Part shown: piece after piece, positions 1 through 5,964 of the stretch
Position numbering within the stretch: position 1 is the stretch's first letter
Layout: every line of letters starts with the position of its first letter
DNA from: a virus
Taxonomy: Duplodnaviria; Heunggongvirae; Uroviricota; Caudoviricetes
IMG/VR virus record: IMGVR_UViG_2558860472_000005
Span: 1 to 34,628 of that record
DNA: 34,628 nucleotides
Direction: 5' to 3' (one strand)
Notes under the pieces: model-generated
Told to the model about the DNA's origin: nothing
The model's database searches: none
Seen by the model: only the letters and a program-made list of their open reading frames with translations
Position numbers and translations under genes: made by a program

Positions 1-720
1 TTATAATTTAGCAAGCTCGTCAATCAATTGTGGGTTCTTTGACATAAAAGCTACATATGAGCTTCCTATCGTAGTGAGTTTGTAACCAGCATCACTTTCA
101 TAAATGAGTTTATTGCTTACTGGATACGAAATATATTTGATCCAATCCCAATCTGCGAAAGCTTCTTTATTATGATTTTTTGTTTTTTCAAAGAACTGAA
201 TAGCATCTTCTTTGCGGATATAACCACCATTGCTAGCAATTGTATAAAATAAGTCATATTGTGAGCGGAATAATACCTTGTTTATTTCAAAGTATCTTAC
301 AGCACTTTGCAAAAGAGATATTTCTCGTGCCAATAAATCAATTTTAATTTCATTGTCAGTATCTAGATCAGATGCTTGTTTCAATATGATTTGATATAAT
401 TCTTCACTGAATTCAGTTTTAAATTGTTCATGGTGTATTCTTATAGCTTCAATGCTCGTATTCTTTTGTAAGCTCGCCAAATTAGAATTTGAAGATTCTA
501 ATACTTCTGCTGTTTGTTTCTCTGCTATGAATTTTGCCGATATACCCGATAAAGTCGCGGATATTTCTGATAGCGTATTTTTAGAAAAAAAAGAACTGAC
601 AACTTCAAAAATTCGAGTTCGGAATCTGAATCCGATGATAAGAACAACAACTGGCCATGCAATGCTTTTTATCAGTTCAACGATTAGTTTCGGTGACCAA
701 CTACATACTAAATCTTCCAT
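1..720 (-). CDS. Hypothetical membrane-anchored protein (AT-rich accessory gene next to integrase)
   Basis: Complete 239-aa ORF with stop at 1-3; N-terminal hydrophobic helix (IAWPVVVLIIGF); strongly AT-rich unlike the phage core; no family recognised. Confidence 0.5.
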   Translation of the reverse strand: MEDLVCSWSPKLIVELIKSIAWPVVVLIIGFRFRTRIFEVVSSFFSKNTLSEISATLSGISAKFIAEKQTAEVLESSNSNLASLQKNTSIEAIRIHHEQFKTEFSEELYQIILKQASDLDTDNEIKIDLLAREISLLQSAVRYFEINKVLFRSQYDLFYTIASNGGYIRKEDAIQFFEKTKNHNKEAFADWDWIKYISYPVSNKLIYESDAGYKLTTIGSSYVAFMSKNPQLIDELAKL

Positions 721-919: not shown

Positions 920-2104
920 TTAACCAGTTTTGATTTCCCCGTGTGGAACGACAATCCAATTAATGTGGTTTTGAGTGTAAATCTTAGTCGACTGAGCGTC
1001 GCTATGTGCCATTCGTCCTTGGGGATCGATACCCTGCTGATCGAAAAGATGCGCTGCCAGAGCTCTGATTTCATGAAAGGTTGGTCTTTCATCCATCGGT
1101 AGATTGTCGCATAAACCTAGCTTGTCTCGCGTTGCTGAAAACGATCGACTCAAATAGTCTGGTGCAACTTGTGTCGGATGTGAAACCTCTTTGCTTCGTT
1201 TAACTTGGCGTTCTGGGATTCTGTGAACGACAAACGGACTAGCCACATTATCTCGGCTATCGTCAATTATCCGTTTCAACTCTTCACCAATTGGTATTGC
1301 AACGTGTGACGCCTCTTTTTTTTGCACTTTTTGCCTGTGGATGTAAAGCGTCCCATATATGCCATTTTGTGGTTGTTCGAACCAGACACATCCACATATA
1401 CCGTCTTTAGGTTCGCGAATTGAGTAACGGATTCGCGATACTTCGAGTCGTGCATGTGTAGTTTGCAATGCTAGGTCCATTGCTGTTCTTAACCATGGTG
1501 CAGCGGCCTGCCTGATAGCTATAAAATGCTCGAGTGACAGGCGCCGTCTTTTCTTCTCATCAGTCCTACGCATTTTTTTTCTGATGGCCGGGTTATCCAG
1601 CATTAGTGATTCATCGACCGCATAAGAGAACAACTTTTTAAGAAAGCTGACCTTTCTGTTCTGCACATTTGCGGATGCGCTGGCATGATATTTGTTGATG
1701 TAGGTATTAACGTGTTCAAGTTCGATATCGCATGCCGGAACATTTACGAAAAACGCTTTTACGCGTAGAGCGTCATTTTTCCAGTCATCTAAGGTGCTCT
1801 GGGAAGGACGTTCGTCTTCGATAATCCGGGTCATTATGTGATCAACATGTTCAGCAAATGGTTTTGCTTCTCCGATAACACCGCCAGATTCTCTAATAAG
1901 ATTTTCTACTGATGGAGATAATTCTGCTCTCATCCTCAGGTTGTACTCTCTGGCGATTGCAATGGCTATTGCCCTATCCTTACCTATATTTTTCTTCTTT
2001 CCAGTAATAAGTGTGAATTTATAAACACCTCGATCTTTATCAAAAATCAGATAATCAGGAAGATGTCTGTATTCTTTTTTACGTGGCCTTGCCGCCATGG
2101 TCAC
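920..2104 (-). CDS. int: Tyrosine-type phage integrase
   Basis: 394 aa; C-terminal catalytic region with HEIRALAAH (His-x-x-Arg) and KIYTQNH (nucleophile Tyr) motifs; Xis-like gene immediately upstream on the same strand. Confidence 0.9.
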   Translation of the reverse strand: MTMAARPRKKEYRHLPDYLIFDKDRGVYKFTLITGKKKNIGKDRAIAIAIAREYNLRMRAELSPSVENLIRESGGVIGEAKPFAEHVDHIMTRIIEDERPSQSTLDDWKNDALRVKAFFVNVPACDIELEHVNTYINKYHASASANVQNRKVSFLKKLFSYAVDESLMLDNPAIRKKMRRTDEKKRRRLSLEHFIAIRQAAAPWLRTAMDLALQTTHARLEVSRIRYSIREPKDGICGCVWFEQPQNGIYGTLYIHRQKVQKKEASHVAIPIGEELKRIIDDSRDNVASPFVVHRIPERQVKRSKEVSHPTQVAPDYLSRSFSATRDKLGLCDNLPMDERPTFHEIRALAAHLFDQQGIDPQGRMAHSDAQSTKIYTQNHINWIVVPHGEIKTG

Positions 2105-2587: not shown

Positions 2588-2946
2588 TTCTTAGTCTCCG
2601 GTGCTTTCGGCATTACTGCCCAGTGAGTGATATTGACATTTTCAAGGTCCCCGACCTGAAATGTCCGCTGCCATTCTCCGGTTTCTTTTTGCCCCCATGT
2701 GTACCAGAGAGAACGCCAGCCAATCAGCCAGCCTTCTCCACTAGCATCAAATAACAGAACACTTTCATTTGCTGGTGGCAGTTCAGCTGACACTGGTATT
2801 ATTTTGTTTTCCAGTGCCGCACATTTAGCTTCAAGCGCGTTGAATTTACGTACTAGGTACTCAGCATTTGTTTCGTTCACTTTCAGATCTCGCGGTACAC
2901 ATTTCCCGCGAAGAAACCCTTCCATTTCGAAAACATTCATGCGCAT
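2584..2946 (-). CDS. Hypothetical phage early protein
   Basis: 120-aa ORF with phage-core composition, co-oriented and overlapping its neighbours; no family recognised. Confidence 0.45.
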   Translation of the reverse strand: MRMNVFEMEGFLRGKCVPRDLKVNETNAEYLVRKFNALEAKCAALENKIIPVSAELPPANESVLLFDASGEGWLIGWRSLWYTWGQKETGEWQRTFQVGDLENVNITHWAVMPKAPETKK

Positions 2947-3500
2947 TTGCGTAACTCCGATAACTCGTTAAAACGTTCCATAAACATCCCGTAGGCCTGG
3001 CCCGGTGCCAGTGGAATCACGTTGAACATCTCTGTTGCCGGGATGCCTTCCAGTACAGGCCAGAAAGAGCCATCATCAAGCCCGAGATCGCGGCGTTCGG
3101 TTGCCAGCATGATGAGATCGGCATATTTCACAGGCGTGCTCATAACCGGGGGTAACCCGTATTTTTCACGGATTACGGCGTCTATTTTTTCTTCCATCCG
3201 TTTATAGTCAGGAAGAAGGCGTTTCAGTGGAGCCGGGATGTCCTGGCAATACGCTTCTGTTGCATCATGCATTAACGCTTCAAAAGCAAATTCCTGCGGT
3301 ACCAGCTGGCTGCAAAGCACCGCATGTTGGGCGACGCTGTAGAAGTGTGAAAGATGTCCTGCAAAGCGACAGATATTTGAAAGGGAAACCGCGATATCGT
3401 TAATAACGATGTCGTCTTTATTTATCCTGTCATAATAAAAATGCTTCCCGGAAAAAGTTTTAATAAATGACATTTTGTTCTCCACGTATATGCGCTGCAC
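2937..3500 (-). CDS. HD-domain phosphohydrolase (prophage YfdR-like)
   Basis: H...HD metal-binding signature (SVAQHAV ... ALMHDATEAY); YfdR resemblance is from memory. Start may be the second Met at 3473. Confidence 0.7.
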   Translation of the reverse strand: MQRIYVENKMSFIKTFSGKHFYYDRINKDDIVINDIAVSLSNICRFAGHLSHFYSVAQHAVLCSQLVPQEFAFEALMHDATEAYCQDIPAPLKRLLPDYKRMEEKIDAVIREKYGLPPVMSTPVKYADLIMLATERRDLGLDDGSFWPVLEGIPATEMFNVIPLAPGQAYGMFMERFNELSELRKCA

Positions 3501-3540
3501 CGCGCTGAATTCGGGTAAAAGGAAGCCCTCACCGTCCGGC

Positions 3541-3960
3541 GATTATTGAGTCAATTACATTTCCATAAATGCCCCCGTAGGGGCGGTTAGTTTCTCCACA
3601 AAACAGAGAAGAACACCTGTGGTGGCAGCCGCCCGGATGGATTGGGTTATGAGCCCGTCGTCCGATGATGCTCTTCTCTGTTTTGTAAAAAGGACGGTAC
3701 CAGCCGGAAGCAAGGGTACAAGCTGGTACCGCCAAGACAACACACAGCATAAAGTTGTGGTGCCGGGTGCCTCCCGGTGCCTGGCGAAGGTTGTACACCA
3801 GACGGGTGGGTATCCACAGAAGGTCGACTGTCAGCCTCAACCTTAACCCGCGTGCGCTGAGCCGCATTCACCACAACGCTAAGGATTCTCTCTGGTTGAA
3901 AATACTTAGCTGTTATGTGCCTGCTTTTAGCCACATCAGGCGAGGTGGACCTGGTTATTC
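3541..3960. other. GC-rich structured non-coding region (candidate ncRNA or cis-acting leader)
   Basis: No protein-like ORF despite long overlapping ORFs on both strands; hairpin GCCCCCGTAGGGGC at 3571-3586; perfect 15-bp inverted repeat ACAAAACAGAGAAGA (3598-3612) / TCTTCTCTGTTTTGT (3672-3686); 10-bp stem CGGTACCAGC / GCTGGTACCG (3695-3731). Confidence 0.3.
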
Positions 3961-4017
3961 CCCAACAACAAGGATTCGGTATAATCTGGATATCCCAACA
4001 ACAGGTAGGAAGGAAAT

Positions 4018-4101
4018 ATGTACGTAGATAGCAATGAAAAATTTCATGTTCCGGTAAATCAGAGACCAGCACCGATCCCTGAGCCGAAACCTGAAATGTA
4101 A
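4018..4101 (+). CDS. Proline-rich micro-ORF a (27 aa)
   Basis: ATG preceded by strong SD AGGTAGGAAGGA; peptide MYVDSNEKFHVPVNQRPAPIPEPKPEM; shares an H-[VI]-P...P-x-P-[ES]-P-K motif with two downstream micro-ORFs. Confidence 0.35.
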   Translation: MYVDSNEKFHVPVNQRPAPIPEPKPEM

Positions 4102-4111
4102 GGGAATAGAG

Positions 4112-4591
4112 ATGACTCGAGACGATCTAGCATTCGATATTCATTATTCTTTCTTTCTTGAGAAAATGAATTACACCCTTTTAAATCGGATAGACAAGAG
4201 CATAACTCTTGTTCTCATTGTCTTGGGCTTTTCTGTTTTTGCGCCATATAGCAATATGTTTATTTTTGGCGCATCTGTAGCTATTTTGTCGGTGCTTCAA
4301 TTGGTATACCAATTTGGGCAGGAAGCTGGCTTATCAAAGGAACAGATGCGACAGTATAAAAGGTTGATTGTTGAGTTTTCCTCCCTTTCTGATGACGAAC
4401 TACGCACTCGGTTTTTAAAGGTTCAAGACGCTGATAGTAATCCATGGAGATCTTTACAAGATGCTGCGTTCAAACGGACCTGTATTGCGCTGGGACGTGT
4501 TGATGAGTCAGAAATATCATTCATGCATAGCGTTATCGCATGGTTTGCTGGAGATTTGCCTCGGTCAAAAAGGTGTAATAATGACAAATAG
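4112..4591 (+). CDS. Two-transmembrane-helix membrane protein (AT-rich cargo)
   Basis: 159 aa; SD AGGGAATAGAG upstream; two adjacent hydrophobic helices (ITLVLIVLGFSVFAP, MFIFGASVAILSVLQLVYQF) then a charged C-terminal domain; packed between micro-ORFs. Confidence 0.6.
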   Translation: MTRDDLAFDIHYSFFLEKMNYTLLNRIDKSITLVLIVLGFSVFAPYSNMFIFGASVAILSVLQLVYQFGQEAGLSKEQMRQYKRLIVEFSSLSDDELRTRFLKVQDADSNPWRSLQDAAFKRTCIALGRVDESEISFMHSVIAWFAGDLPRSKRCNNDK

Positions 4592-4791: not shown

Positions 4792-4823
4792 GTGTTGGGG
4801 ATCTCCAGATTGTTAAAGAGCGA

Positions 4824-4849
4824 AGCGTCCTATAGGGCGCTTTTTTGTT
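4824..4849 (+). terminator. Rho-independent terminator ending the plus-strand cargo operon
   Basis: Stem AGCGTCC / GGGCGCT (one G-U pair) with TATA loop, followed by TTTTTTGTT. Confidence 0.5.
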
Positions 4850-4960
4850 GCTAACGAATCATCCTGGACTTCATATGCCCCAGGCGGCTACTTCGTGGGC
4901 GTCCTGCCTGTTCGTTGTTTCGCTTGGGTACATTATGTATCTCAAAGGTACATTGTCAAG

Positions 4961-4998: not shown

Positions 4999-5673
4999 TT
5001 AGGCTTTGATTTTGTATCTTCTTGGTTTTCCTGAGAAAATCACTGTACCAATTATAGAGCAATTACCGTTGATCTTAATGTAAGGCTCAGGCCAGTTTGG
5101 GTTTAACGCTTTGAGATAACGCTGTGTCCCATCTTCTATCAACCTTTTGAAGGTGGTTTCACCTGTATCGTGCATCAATGCAATAACGTCGTCACCGTGG
5201 CAGGCAGGTACTTCAGGATCGACAAAAATCATGTCTCCCGGGCGGTACTCATCAATCATTGAATCACCTATCACCCGCAAGATATAAGTCATTTCCCCAC
5301 AGGGTACAGGGCAGGGATACGTTTCTGCTGTGCTCAAATCAACCTCAGAATATCCAACTTCTTTCCATGCTCCGGCCTGTACCCATGATATGACAGGGAC
5401 TAATGTGATTTGTTTATTAGTGATTGAAACATCAGGTTTTTTTGTGATGTTCGTTGTCTGGTGTTCTTGATCGAGCCATCCGACAGGCAGGTCGAAACAT
5501 CTTTCGATGTGTCGTGCCATGCTGTCACCGATATTTTTAGTAGCACCATCTCCCATAAACCTGCTGGTCTGGGTTGGCTCGCGATCAATCATAGTGGCAA
5601 AGGAAGAATTCCCGCCAACACCATCTCTCAGTTTTCTGGCGTTAGACCGCCGGATGTCATGGATTGTTTTCAT
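4999..5673 (-). CDS. cI: CI-type repressor (HTH plus S24 LexA-like peptidase domain)
   Basis: 224 aa; C-terminal S24 signature (GDSM nucleophile Ser, downstream Lys in TTFKRL); candidate Ala-Gly autocleavage site (VQAGAW); divergent from the Cro-like gene. Confidence 0.85.
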   Translation of the reverse strand: MKTIHDIRRSNARKLRDGVGGNSSFATMIDREPTQTSRFMGDGATKNIGDSMARHIERCFDLPVGWLDQEHQTTNITKKPDVSITNKQITLVPVISWVQAGAWKEVGYSEVDLSTAETYPCPVPCGEMTYILRVIGDSMIDEYRPGDMIFVDPEVPACHGDDVIALMHDTGETTFKRLIEDGTQRYLKALNPNWPEPYIKINGNCSIIGTVIFSGKPRRYKIKA

Positions 5674-5688
5674 AACGAAATTAAAACC

Positions 5689-5760
5689 CTTGTACCGTTA
5701 AGGTACAAGTATCTTGAAGGTTCATTTTAATCATGTAATATGTACACCGGAGGTACATAT
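5689..5760. promoter_or_regulatory. cI-cro intergenic operator/promoter region
   Basis: Palindrome CTTGTACC-n5-GGTACAAG (5689-5709) and ATATGTAC-n7-GTACATAT (5738-5760); four GTAC cores in two pairs 11 bp apart; candidate rightward promoter -35 TTGAAG (5714-5719), -10 TAATAT (5736-5741). Confidence 0.45.
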
Positions 5761-5763
5761 TGT

Positions 5764-5964
5764 ATGAAAGCGTATTGGGACTCTTTAACCAAAGAACAGC
5801 AGGGCGAGTTGGCCGGAAAAGTTGGCTCAACACCTGGCTACTTACGGCTGGTTTTCAATGGCTATAAAAAAGCCAGTTTTGTGCTGGCTAAAAAACTTGA
5901 GCAATGCACGTCAGGTGCAATTACGAAATCTGACTTAAGACCGGATATCTATCCGAAAGATTAG
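5764..5964 (+). CDS. cro: Cro-like HTH regulator (YdaS/Cro family)
   Basis: 66 aa from ATG 5764 (ORF-track start 5740 less likely); divergent from cI; C-terminal ...ITKSDLRPDIY motif typical of this family. Confidence 0.7.
   Translation: MKAYWDSLTKEQQGELAGKVGSTPGYLRLVFNGYKKASFVLAKKLEQCTSGAITKSDLRPDIYPKD

Follow-up and report, generated by a model that had tools for sequence, protein, structure and literature searches.

The window analyzed here, a stretch of 34,628 nucleotides (nt) that makes up the virus record IMGVR_UViG_2558860472_000005, is a lambdoid prophage of Escherichia coli of the SfII/SfV/ST64B/e14 type. Between its immunity repressor gene and its first leftward genes lies an interval, positions 3541 to 3990, that an earlier reading of the letters (the original prediction) had singled out as structured non-coding DNA. 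About 540 nt here (3474 to 4017) hold no credible gene; they are bounded on one side by a yfdR-like gene, which likely starts at an ATG at 3473 preceded by GGAGAA, and on the other by plus-strand cargo (Table 1). The segment from 3480 to 4030 is 100% identical to several E. coli chromosomes, and SfII, SfV, ST64B, phiES15, phiNP, F1055, and e14 all have the element between their repressor and their first leftward genes. We read the interval, with a probability of roughly 0.65, as the non-coding folded leader of the leftward early (PL) operon, a minus-strand RNA that would release a DicF-type small RNA (sRNA) upon prophage induction. The observations that carry this reading are the non-coding status of the interval, its strand, the homologies of its modules, covariation, a terminator, synteny, and CI operators at PL.

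Table 1. Features of the leader region and its surroundings, in window coordinates (ORF, open reading frame; aa, amino acids)
Feature	Position	Strand	Remarks
int	920-2104	-	Small leftward genes adjoin
YfdR-like HD 5'-deoxynucleotidase	2937-3473	-	First protein gene downstream on the leftward transcript; phrog_318, 3.8e-111
Small GC hairpin GCCCC-UAC-GGGGC	3571-3585 (inverted repeat called at 3570-3585)	-	Exactly at the junction of mosaic modules; SfV, ST64B, F1055, and phiNP have a hairpin of other sequence here
Structure I1	3691-3593	-	25-bp outer stem, three-way junction, ends in GGAGA; fold and covariation
Copy of the tRNAfMet anticodon stem-loop, CGGGCUCAUAACCC	3657-3644	-	Tip of I1; 14-nt exact identity
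Intrinsic terminator	3733-3687	-	13-bp GC-rich stem 3733-3721/3705-3693; U5 at 3691-3687; -23 kcal/mol
Conserved single strand UUUAUGCUGUGUGUUGUCUU	3753-3734	-	Presumed seed and RNase E entry site; unpaired in folds
STnc100/PasD-like multi-helix domain	3877-3754	-	Rfam match, covariation
Hairpin P0 (GCUAAG-U-AUUUUC ... GAGAAU-C-CUUAGC)	3910-3878	-	In minimum-free-energy and centroid structures; inside the Rfam STnc100 match
Conserved block ACCACC..GCCUGAUGUGG..AAAAGCAGGC	3912-3950	-	Conserved across phages; 97% with phiES15
Cargo control region	3950-4010		Two CTGG-N13/14-CCAG copies (CCCAACAAC core) flank a perfect TATAAT at 3981-3986 (+); direct repeat D1
Plus-strand cargo, low GC	27-aa ORF 4018-4101; 159-aa ORF 4112-4591	+	Terminator (+) at 4822-4843
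boxA consensus CGCTCTTTAACAA	4822-4810	-	About 105 nt downstream of PL, just past the hairpin that terminates the plus-strand cargo
PL-like promoter TTGACA-16-CATAAT	4959-4932	-	11 of 12 promoter matches; directly after the cI terminator
cI (ymfK-like)	4999-5673	-	cI terminator 4987-4968
cro	5740-5964	+	

A non-coding, folded interval probably read from PL

The original prediction had described long ORFs in several frames on both strands, none of them protein-like. Five ORFs of 62 to 141 aa do overlap the region on both strands, and annotators have called genes here: on the identical sequence of strain GE3, PGAP placed a "frameshifted hypothetical protein"; SfII carries an annotated 112-aa ORF (SfII_35); and the homolog in K-12 is the gene ymfH, residues 60 to 96 of whose product match a 62-position PHROG. 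These calls speak for a protein gene of the YmfH-like "hypothetical protein" kind, possibly frameshifted in this copy, which we consider extremely unlikely in view of alignments of the ORFs with homologs at 69 to 88% identity (ST64B, 118970_sal3, a Scandinavium prophage, and phiNP). Many of the indels in these alignments are not multiples of three, and nearly every ORF meets 1 to 5 in-frame stops in at least one homolog; frame-breaking indels and such stops occur against ST64B, sal3, and Scandinavium alike. Substitutions fall evenly across codon positions (e.g., 13/19/14), with no third-position bias, and the frame actually used differs among the window, SfV, and e14, so that neither the kept frame nor the protein-like substitutions of a YmfH-type protein were found. 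No Pfam or PHROG family matched the 112-aa and 141-aa ORFs of the window, and the conserved columns coincide with the covarying RNA helices described below. Judged by these alignments, 3541 to 3990 is not a protein gene, frameshifted or otherwise, the eventuality that the original prediction had named as one that would overturn it, and its account of the ORFs and of the region as non-coding is borne out. K-12 ymfH is probably not a protein gene either.

The same prediction had called the interval GC-rich and highly structured, and the second half of this description fared better than the first. The G+C content of 0.51 to 0.575 over 3501 to 3900 is moderately, not strikingly, high relative to flanks of about 0.385 to 0.44 (left, 0.42; right, 0.385 to 0.435). 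Folding, measured over 3560 to 3950 against dinucleotide shuffles, goes far beyond chance on the minus strand (-165.6 kcal/mol; z = -5.7; 0 of 100 shuffles as good), with a z of -4.0 on the plus strand. All three predicted repeats are present. The first, a perfect 15-bp inverted repeat said to have arms about 60 nt apart (3598 to 3612 and 3672 to 3686, with 59 nt between), is part of an 18-nt repeat with 94% complementary arms (3598 to 3615 and 3669 to 3686). The second, a perfect 10-bp stem (3695 to 3704 and 3722 to 3731) with a 17-nt loop, lies inside the 13-bp stem of the terminator. The third is the GC hairpin at the left edge.

Several signals fix the strand. The U5 run follows the terminator hairpin on the minus strand only, and in 20 homologs of the 25-bp outer stem of structure I1, 68 G-U cells would be A-C mismatches on the plus strand; the pairing of I1 is kept at 97.7% when read on the minus strand versus 87.7% on the plus strand. 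Since the signal is on the minus strand, we assign the RNA to the CI-controlled leftward promoter PL. The operator motif TGTAYC-N5-GGTACA occurs at this promoter twice (4936 to 4952 and 4916 to 4934), and three more copies occupy 5691 to 5757 in the cI-cro spacer, which identifies the leftward promoter as a CI-operated PL. The original prediction had the interval crossed by a leftward early transcript from cI; the interval does lie in the path of such a transcript, whose source is, however, a separate promoter downstream of the cI terminator. The Stx2c phage offers the simplest arrangement: an identical promoter and cI terminator stand immediately ahead of a leader of about 570 nt, whose end, adjoining the first gene, is formed by the same terminator and 25-bp stem. 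In the window and several related loci, a cargo gene on the opposite strand is inserted between PL and the element, and the PL transcript would run antisense to both cargo ORFs of the window. A simple scan predicted no minus-strand terminator between PL and 3733.

A leftward untranslated leader of about 1.4 kb is headed by the boxA consensus, which has a single exact match in the window (0.08 expected at 1 mismatch or fewer). Exact copies were found in 13 of the 354 fetched loci; the seven whose boxA was checked against the seed position have it 0.8 to 1.1 kb upstream of the sRNA module and on that module's strand, and one locus, L197, departs from this arrangement. Going by its sequence and position, it may shield the long untranslated leader from Rho. 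It is the only antitermination-like signal that we noticed near PL, and it lies outside the interval that the original prediction had delimited.

Modules of the proposed leader RNA

Read from its 5' side on the minus strand, the leader passes through hairpin P0 into a multi-helix domain closed by the helix GUUGUGGUG (3877 to 3869)/CACCACAAC (3762 to 3754), with an invariant GGUGAAU junction, internal hairpins, and the hairpin CCGGG-AGGCA-CCCGG (3777 to 3763). A scan of the whole window with Rfam at gathering thresholds reported nothing. A permissive scan of 901 nt aligned RF02076 (STnc100) over 3907 to 3684 on the minus strand, with model positions 1 to 206 all aligned, at 39.6 bits (E = 5.6e-7); the covariance-model scan that the original prediction had called for hence gave a full-length, if subthreshold, match. 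The same model scores 39.5 bits in SfII and SfV, 35.1 in ST64B, and 34.4 in Qin, in comparison to 149.5 for the bona fide STnc100 in the late region of the Stx2c phage (L005, 19482 to 19693, beside tRNAs and stx), with which the window shares a 22-nt identity.

We aligned 13 such domains, comprising early-left copies from E. coli, Salmonella, Cronobacter, and Scandinavium phages, dicF-type loci including that of K-12 Qin, and one true STnc100. GGUGAAU and GGAGGCACC are invariant in this alignment, and in the closing helix and the first and last hairpins 12 of 20 pairs are changed on both sides; 97.6% of the cells are paired, compared with 23 to 48% in slid controls, and none of 500 shuffles reaches the observed values. 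The consensus architecture of STnc100, namely, the closing helix, the GGUGAAU junction, the CCGGGAGGCACCCGG hairpin, and a 3' terminator, is present, and the likeness to STnc100 and PasD extends to the 5' hairpin and the single strand. The internal hairpins, the seed, and the terminator differ. So does the genomic context: the element is early-left in all of the syntenic phages and not in the late-region setting of STnc100, downstream of Q/stx and near lysis genes; STnc100 and PasD are late-region RNAs downstream of stx2 or near Q and LpxR (STnc100, PMC12370729). Expression of the prophage sRNA STnc100 has been seen on a Northern blot in enterohemorrhagic E. coli (PMC5331693), and PasD is its Hfq-dependent relative (bioRxiv 10.64898/2026.05.13.724894; PMC8550237). 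An identity with PasA to PasD themselves was discarded, as a search tolerating up to 5 substitutions did not find their Northern probe sequences in the window and PasD is a late-region sRNA. An svsR/co293-like sRNA (PMC12803456) was likewise discarded; it occupies another site, the 3' end of cI, and K-12 C0293 has no significant match in the window.

The domain is followed by a conserved single strand, which in the window is a one-base variant of the common GCUGUGUGUAGUCUU. UGCUGUGUG is invariant in all 7 homologs derived by BLAST, including those with different upstream domains. Across 113 distinct sequences (111 from fetched loci, the window, and the Stx2c phage), a set retrieved by searching for the seed itself, one and the same 16-nt single strand precedes 53 different hairpin sequences, each ending in a U-run. 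A less biased sample, retrieved via the I1 loop, gave GCUGUGUGUAGUC(U/C)U in about 75 of 136 copies, a second class (ACAACAGCCACUGCUUUG) in 43, and others in a few.

The hairpin after the single strand is the intrinsic terminator. It shares UUGGCGGUAYCAG...CCGYCCUUUUU with K-12 DicF (UUGGCGGUAYCAG...CCGCCCUUUUU), and on this sequence comparison the two terminators appear clearly homologous. The 10-bp stem of the original prediction is accordingly a real RNA element, acting as the presumptive terminator of a DicF-like sRNA module and not as an antiterminator.

Structure I1 comes next. The 5' arm of its 25-bp stem begins with the U-tract of the terminator, and the predicted 15-bp repeat, while real, is the core of this longer stem. 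In 20 distinct sequences, 97.7% of the pairing in 33 pairs is kept (slid controls, 42 to 58% paired), and 7 pairs are changed on both sides, one of them flipped from G-C to C-G in seven sequences. The covariation of stems asked for in the original prediction is therefore found in both the domain and I1. Folding suggests that the stem forms only on read-through transcripts, where it would most likely serve as a substrate and site for RNase III. The lambda N leader and sib are RNase III processing stems in phage early leaders, and I1 resembles them, as well as the RNase III step in DicF maturation, as a long, nearly perfect 25-bp duplex in an untranslated part of the PL transcript that adjoins the first downstream cistron. 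Unlike these and the RNase III sites of DicF, it takes in the terminator U-tract and has a conserved three-way junction and a tRNA-like hairpin.

This hairpin, at the tip of I1, is identical to nt 29 to 42 of E. coli tRNAfMet (metZ) and consists of three consecutive G-C pairs closing a CUCAUAA loop, the features that define the initiator anticodon arm. An exact identity of 14 nt was reached in none of 2,000 shuffles. The loop reads CUCAUAA in 127 of 148 copies, with CAU kept in all but two, counts that are biased upward because part of the sample was retrieved with a pattern covering the hairpin. The likeness ends there: ARAGORN calls no tRNA in the region, so there is no complete cloverleaf, and the similarity of the flanks of the 14-mer to tRNA is reached by 1,860 of 3,000 shuffles on the left and by 280 of 3,000 on the right. 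A tRNA gene or remnant was rejected on the same two grounds. The E. coli thrS operator is a mimic of a tRNA anticodon arm in an mRNA leader, and the present leader hairpin similarly reproduces the identity elements of the anticodon arm of one tRNA, here tRNAfMet; it differs from thrS in that no gene for a cognate protein (MetRS or IF3) lies downstream and the rest of the tRNA is absent. Our literature search found no precedent for a tRNAfMet anticodon-arm copy of this kind. That the tip is a deliberate mimic of the initiator anticodon arm, made early after induction or infection as a decoy or sensor for factors that recognize this arm or as a ligand of the 30S P site or IF3 that tunes initiation, is a doubtful, if conceivable, proposition. 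A decoy role is conceivable because this loop of tRNAfMet is, according to work cited in PMC10264068, where the VapC/MvpT toxins of Shigella and Salmonella cleave; by this analogy, PIN toxins of the VapC/MvpT type in Shigella, Salmonella, and E. coli are possible candidates. If so, the hairpin would be an RNA antidefense device, and a cut in the stem by RNase III would free it as an RNA of about 60 nt. In a separate observation, the leaders of three loci from Salmonella and Citrobacter (L007, L008, and L009; alignment columns ~134 to 175) contain a T-arm-like motif, GCTGGTTCGATTCCAG, in which ARAGORN again calls no tRNA.

The recurrence of breaks in homology at hairpins raises another explanation, in which the repeats act at the level of DNA, as operators, junctions of mosaic recombination, or promoter elements of the cargo, and RNA structure is incidental. 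The homology blocks 3480 to 3584 and 3573 to 3735 overlap at the GC hairpin and break exactly at hairpins (3573 to 3584 and ~3735), and the right end (3912 to 4010) looks like a promoter/operator for the opposite-strand cargo. For 3593 to 3877, however, pairing is kept by compensatory changes, the 68 G-U cells of I1 would be mismatched on the other strand, the hairpin with its U-run is directional, and the Rfam covariance model matches at full length, all of which make a purely DNA-level role rather improbable.

Relation to DicF and the proposed route of release

The genomic setting matches that of DicF: the element lies in a PL-type operon beyond the immunity repressor, and its 3' end is at a Rho-independent terminator. 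As in the dicBF operon of Qin, the PL-like operon begins just past the repressor, the terminator is homologous, a structured domain lies upstream, an STnc100-like domain is present in the same locus, and no promoter of its own is evident; near 3950, neither a scan nor inspection by eye gave a convincing sigma-70 match. A sigma-54-like spacing near 3950 in the window variant was rejected, being broken by a 1-nt insertion in other variants. The order of modules differs. In K-12 Qin it is a type-2 domain, DicF, an STnc100-like domain (34.4 bits), and dicB, whereas in the window I1 with its tRNA-like tip follows the element at the place where dicB follows there. The 137 nt upstream of Qin DicF hold the type-2 domain, and the STnc100-like domain fills the dicF-dicB spacer (L250, 2933 to 3142, plus strand) over the full length of the model. 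In the F1055 and Stx2c leaders, the Qin type-2 domain stands in front of a terminator of the window type. The 5' single-stranded targeting part also differs, UGCUGUGUGUUGUCUU in the element versus UUUCUGGUGACGUUU in DicF, with 7 of 16 aligned positions identical. Finally, unlike Qin DicF, the element occurs in inducible phages (SfII, SfV, and ST64B); a survey in 2016 found no DicF in phage genomes (PMC5069750). From these sequence comparisons, the element is best described as a chimeric STnc100/DicF-type sRNA with a distinct seed, set within a mosaic PL-operon leader.

DicF arises from a PL-like dicBp transcript via RNase III (190 nt) and RNase E (53 nt) and has no internal promoter (bioRxiv 10.1101/2023.04.14.536235), and by analogy we propose the same route here. 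Upon inactivation of CI, PL would fire, and RNA polymerase would pass boxA and then run antisense through the plus-strand cargo before transcribing the chain of RNA modules, i.e., the STnc100/PasD-type domain, the 20-nt single strand, and the DicF-type terminator. Together, these would constitute an sRNA unit of about 190 to 220 nt, probably trimmed by RNase E to about 60 nt, as suggested by the 190-nt and 53-nt DicF species, and it would probably pair with host mRNAs through the single strand, helped by Hfq. On read-through, the 25-bp stem would form and provide a likely RNase III site that parts the sRNA from the downstream mRNA, which runs from the yfdR-like gene onward, with int last. We infer the processing by RNases from the 25-bp stem and the AU-rich single strand, and a dependence on Hfq, the targets, and the role of the tRNA-like hairpin are to be taken in the same conditional sense.

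Two forms of cis regulation compete with the release of a DicF-type sRNA. In the first, the element would be an attenuator, riboswitch-like or protein binding, that sets the read-through of the terminator and makes no trans-acting sRNA. A structured domain closed by a helix, a short linker, and an intrinsic terminator are in the order of a transcriptional riboswitch, and neither the junction nor the loops vary. Homologous loci nevertheless differ in how domain and terminator are ordered, the predicted folds show no alternative antiterminator pairing, the linker is conserved as a sequence and not as a pairing partner, and the closest relatives are trans-acting sRNAs; we thus regard an attenuator as unlikely. 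The second is the protein-independent antitermination element that the original prediction had offered alongside an ncRNA or a leader, a cis-acting RNA like put of HK022 that modifies RNA polymerase so that a leftward operon lacking N passes terminators. The element does follow PL in phages in which no N gene is seen beside that promoter, the invariant loops of the domain (GGUGAAU and GGAGGCACC) suggest a specific binding partner, and the terminator follows at once and must be passed for downstream expression. Yet the nun-putL-cI interval of HK022 gives no local match better than 15 nt (E of at least 0.19), and the element occurs once in the window, with no second copy in the PR operon, where put has one copy each after PL and PR. 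In Qin, the same domain comes after the DicF terminator; elsewhere it is found in late regions, as the independent Hfq-associated sRNAs STnc100 and PasD, and minimal loci keep the seed and terminator without the domain. A put-like function is accordingly quite unlikely, and of the possibilities in the original prediction, an ncRNA or leader, as indicated by the full-length subthreshold STnc100 match and the covarying stems, is the best reading.

RNA-based immunity was also considered. The window has no match to the P4 CI/P1 C4 immunity RNAs (RF01695) or to isrK (RF01394). P4-like transcription-termination immunity is reportedly at work in SfV, an account credited to Roberts, Allison and Verma in 2007. 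We rejected such an immunity at this locus: isrK and C4-type RNAs of SfV (L004, 6464 to 6652), ST64B (L002, 5732 to 5920), and the Stx2c phage (L005, 9494 to 9682) are located within annotated protein genes of the PR operon, and no such RNA occurs in the window.

Several points weigh against a leader that releases a DicF-type sRNA. Neither Rfam assignment reaches its threshold: the STnc100 match stands at 39.6 bits versus a gathering score of 47, and the DicF model (RF00039) at 17.1 bits (E = 0.71; 3692 to 3746, minus strand) versus 48, with K-12 DicF itself scoring 76.7. The invariance of the seed in the 120-locus set was partly forced by the search pattern, and unbiased sampling gives at least two seed classes. 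Duplex energies with ftsZ are no better than those of shuffles, in what is a weak test, and a target search found no complement of the seed elsewhere in the window. The copy in e14 has a 1-nt deletion in the most conserved hairpin (GGAGGCACC), and therefore not every copy need be functional. The PL transcript has to cross about 900 nt antisense to the cargo before it reaches the element, with a weak hairpin followed by UUU on its path (4843 to 4822), and the sRNA may instead have a promoter of its own near 3950. The RNA at this exact locus is, moreover, a prediction from the sequence.

Distribution, module exchange, and the adjoining cargo

The K-12 copy of the element is ymfH of e14 (b1142; L254, 5070 to 5381, minus strand), with 89% identity over 3586 to 3893 of the window. 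It has the common seed and the terminator, and its tRNA-like loop is altered to UUAAUAA. K-12 carries ymfH in the SOS-induced operon ymfH-xisE-intE (PMC2634741; PMC12132413), which fits induction from PL. Of 5,426 complete E. coli genomes, about half contain a match. A scan of genome contigs with CACCACAAN{3,8}TGCTGTGTG proved too unspecific; of the hits examined, only 2 held up, one each from E. coli and Scandinavium. To judge from the combinations seen in these sequences, including the minimal loci, the domain, the seed, the terminator, and the processing stem look exchangeable and appear to recombine independently.

A widespread "hypothetical protein," including K-12 ymfH, can be reread in this light as a composite regulatory RNA. 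DicF-type modules, with at least two further seed classes, would be standard in the PL operon of inducible SfV-, SfII-, and ST64B-like phages, beyond the relics in cryptic prophages, and the STnc100/PasD domain becomes linked to the dicF locus. The tRNAfMet-arm copy offers a concrete, testable clue to the way in which a temperate phage might act on translation initiation or on toxins that target tRNA. What is new here is the rereading of the ymfH-type "gene," the exchange of parts between DicF and STnc100 in active phages, and, least expected, the tRNA mimic; the kinds of RNA are themselves known, and no new class is involved.

The right edge of the interval (~3912 to 3990) abuts and probably overlaps the cargo control region, consistent with the original placement just upstream of the plus-strand cargo. 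The conserved block lies here, and its hairpin, GCCUG/CAGGC, covaries in other loci (GCCCGG/CCGGGC and GCCUGA/UCAGGC); a pseudoknot with CCAC/GUGG is possible. The block of e14, SfV, and other loci holds TTCACC-N16-TATNCT directed toward opposite-strand cargo (ymfI in K-12), with the gene start about 30 to 60 nt away. The block could hence be an RNA element of the leftward leader, a promoter of the opposite-strand cargo, or both. In the window, a strong Shine-Dalgarno (SD) sequence follows the TATAAT of the control region before the 27-aa ORF, and the leftward transcript crosses this region. The opposite-strand gene begins right at this site in related loci, including ymfI of e14; related loci have one CTGG-N13/14-CCAG copy, which overlaps the TTCACC-N16-TATNCT promoter for that gene. 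From its sequence, the pair of copies in the window looks like a candidate operator for a regulator.

The product of the 27-aa cargo ORF, which has the strong SD, is proline rich, and the 159-aa cargo protein has hydrophobic stretches and belongs to phrog_6315, a family with no known function; neither matched Pfam or the defense-system models of PADLOC. A 239-aa ORF at the prophage end beside int (1 to 720, minus strand; G+C of about 0.30 to 0.33), likewise unmatched in Pfam and PADLOC, probably represents a further cargo gene. In strain GE3 (L001, 2456 to 4872), an ISEc23 of the IS66 family, absent from the window, sits between the yfdR-like gene and the leader; because of this insertion, the RNA element of GE3 is cut off from its downstream genes. 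In SfV, an unannotated 81-aa ORF with a good SD (L004, 3915 to 4160, plus strand) starts beside the conserved block, at a position where the GenBank record instead annotates a terminator and the minus-strand orf33.

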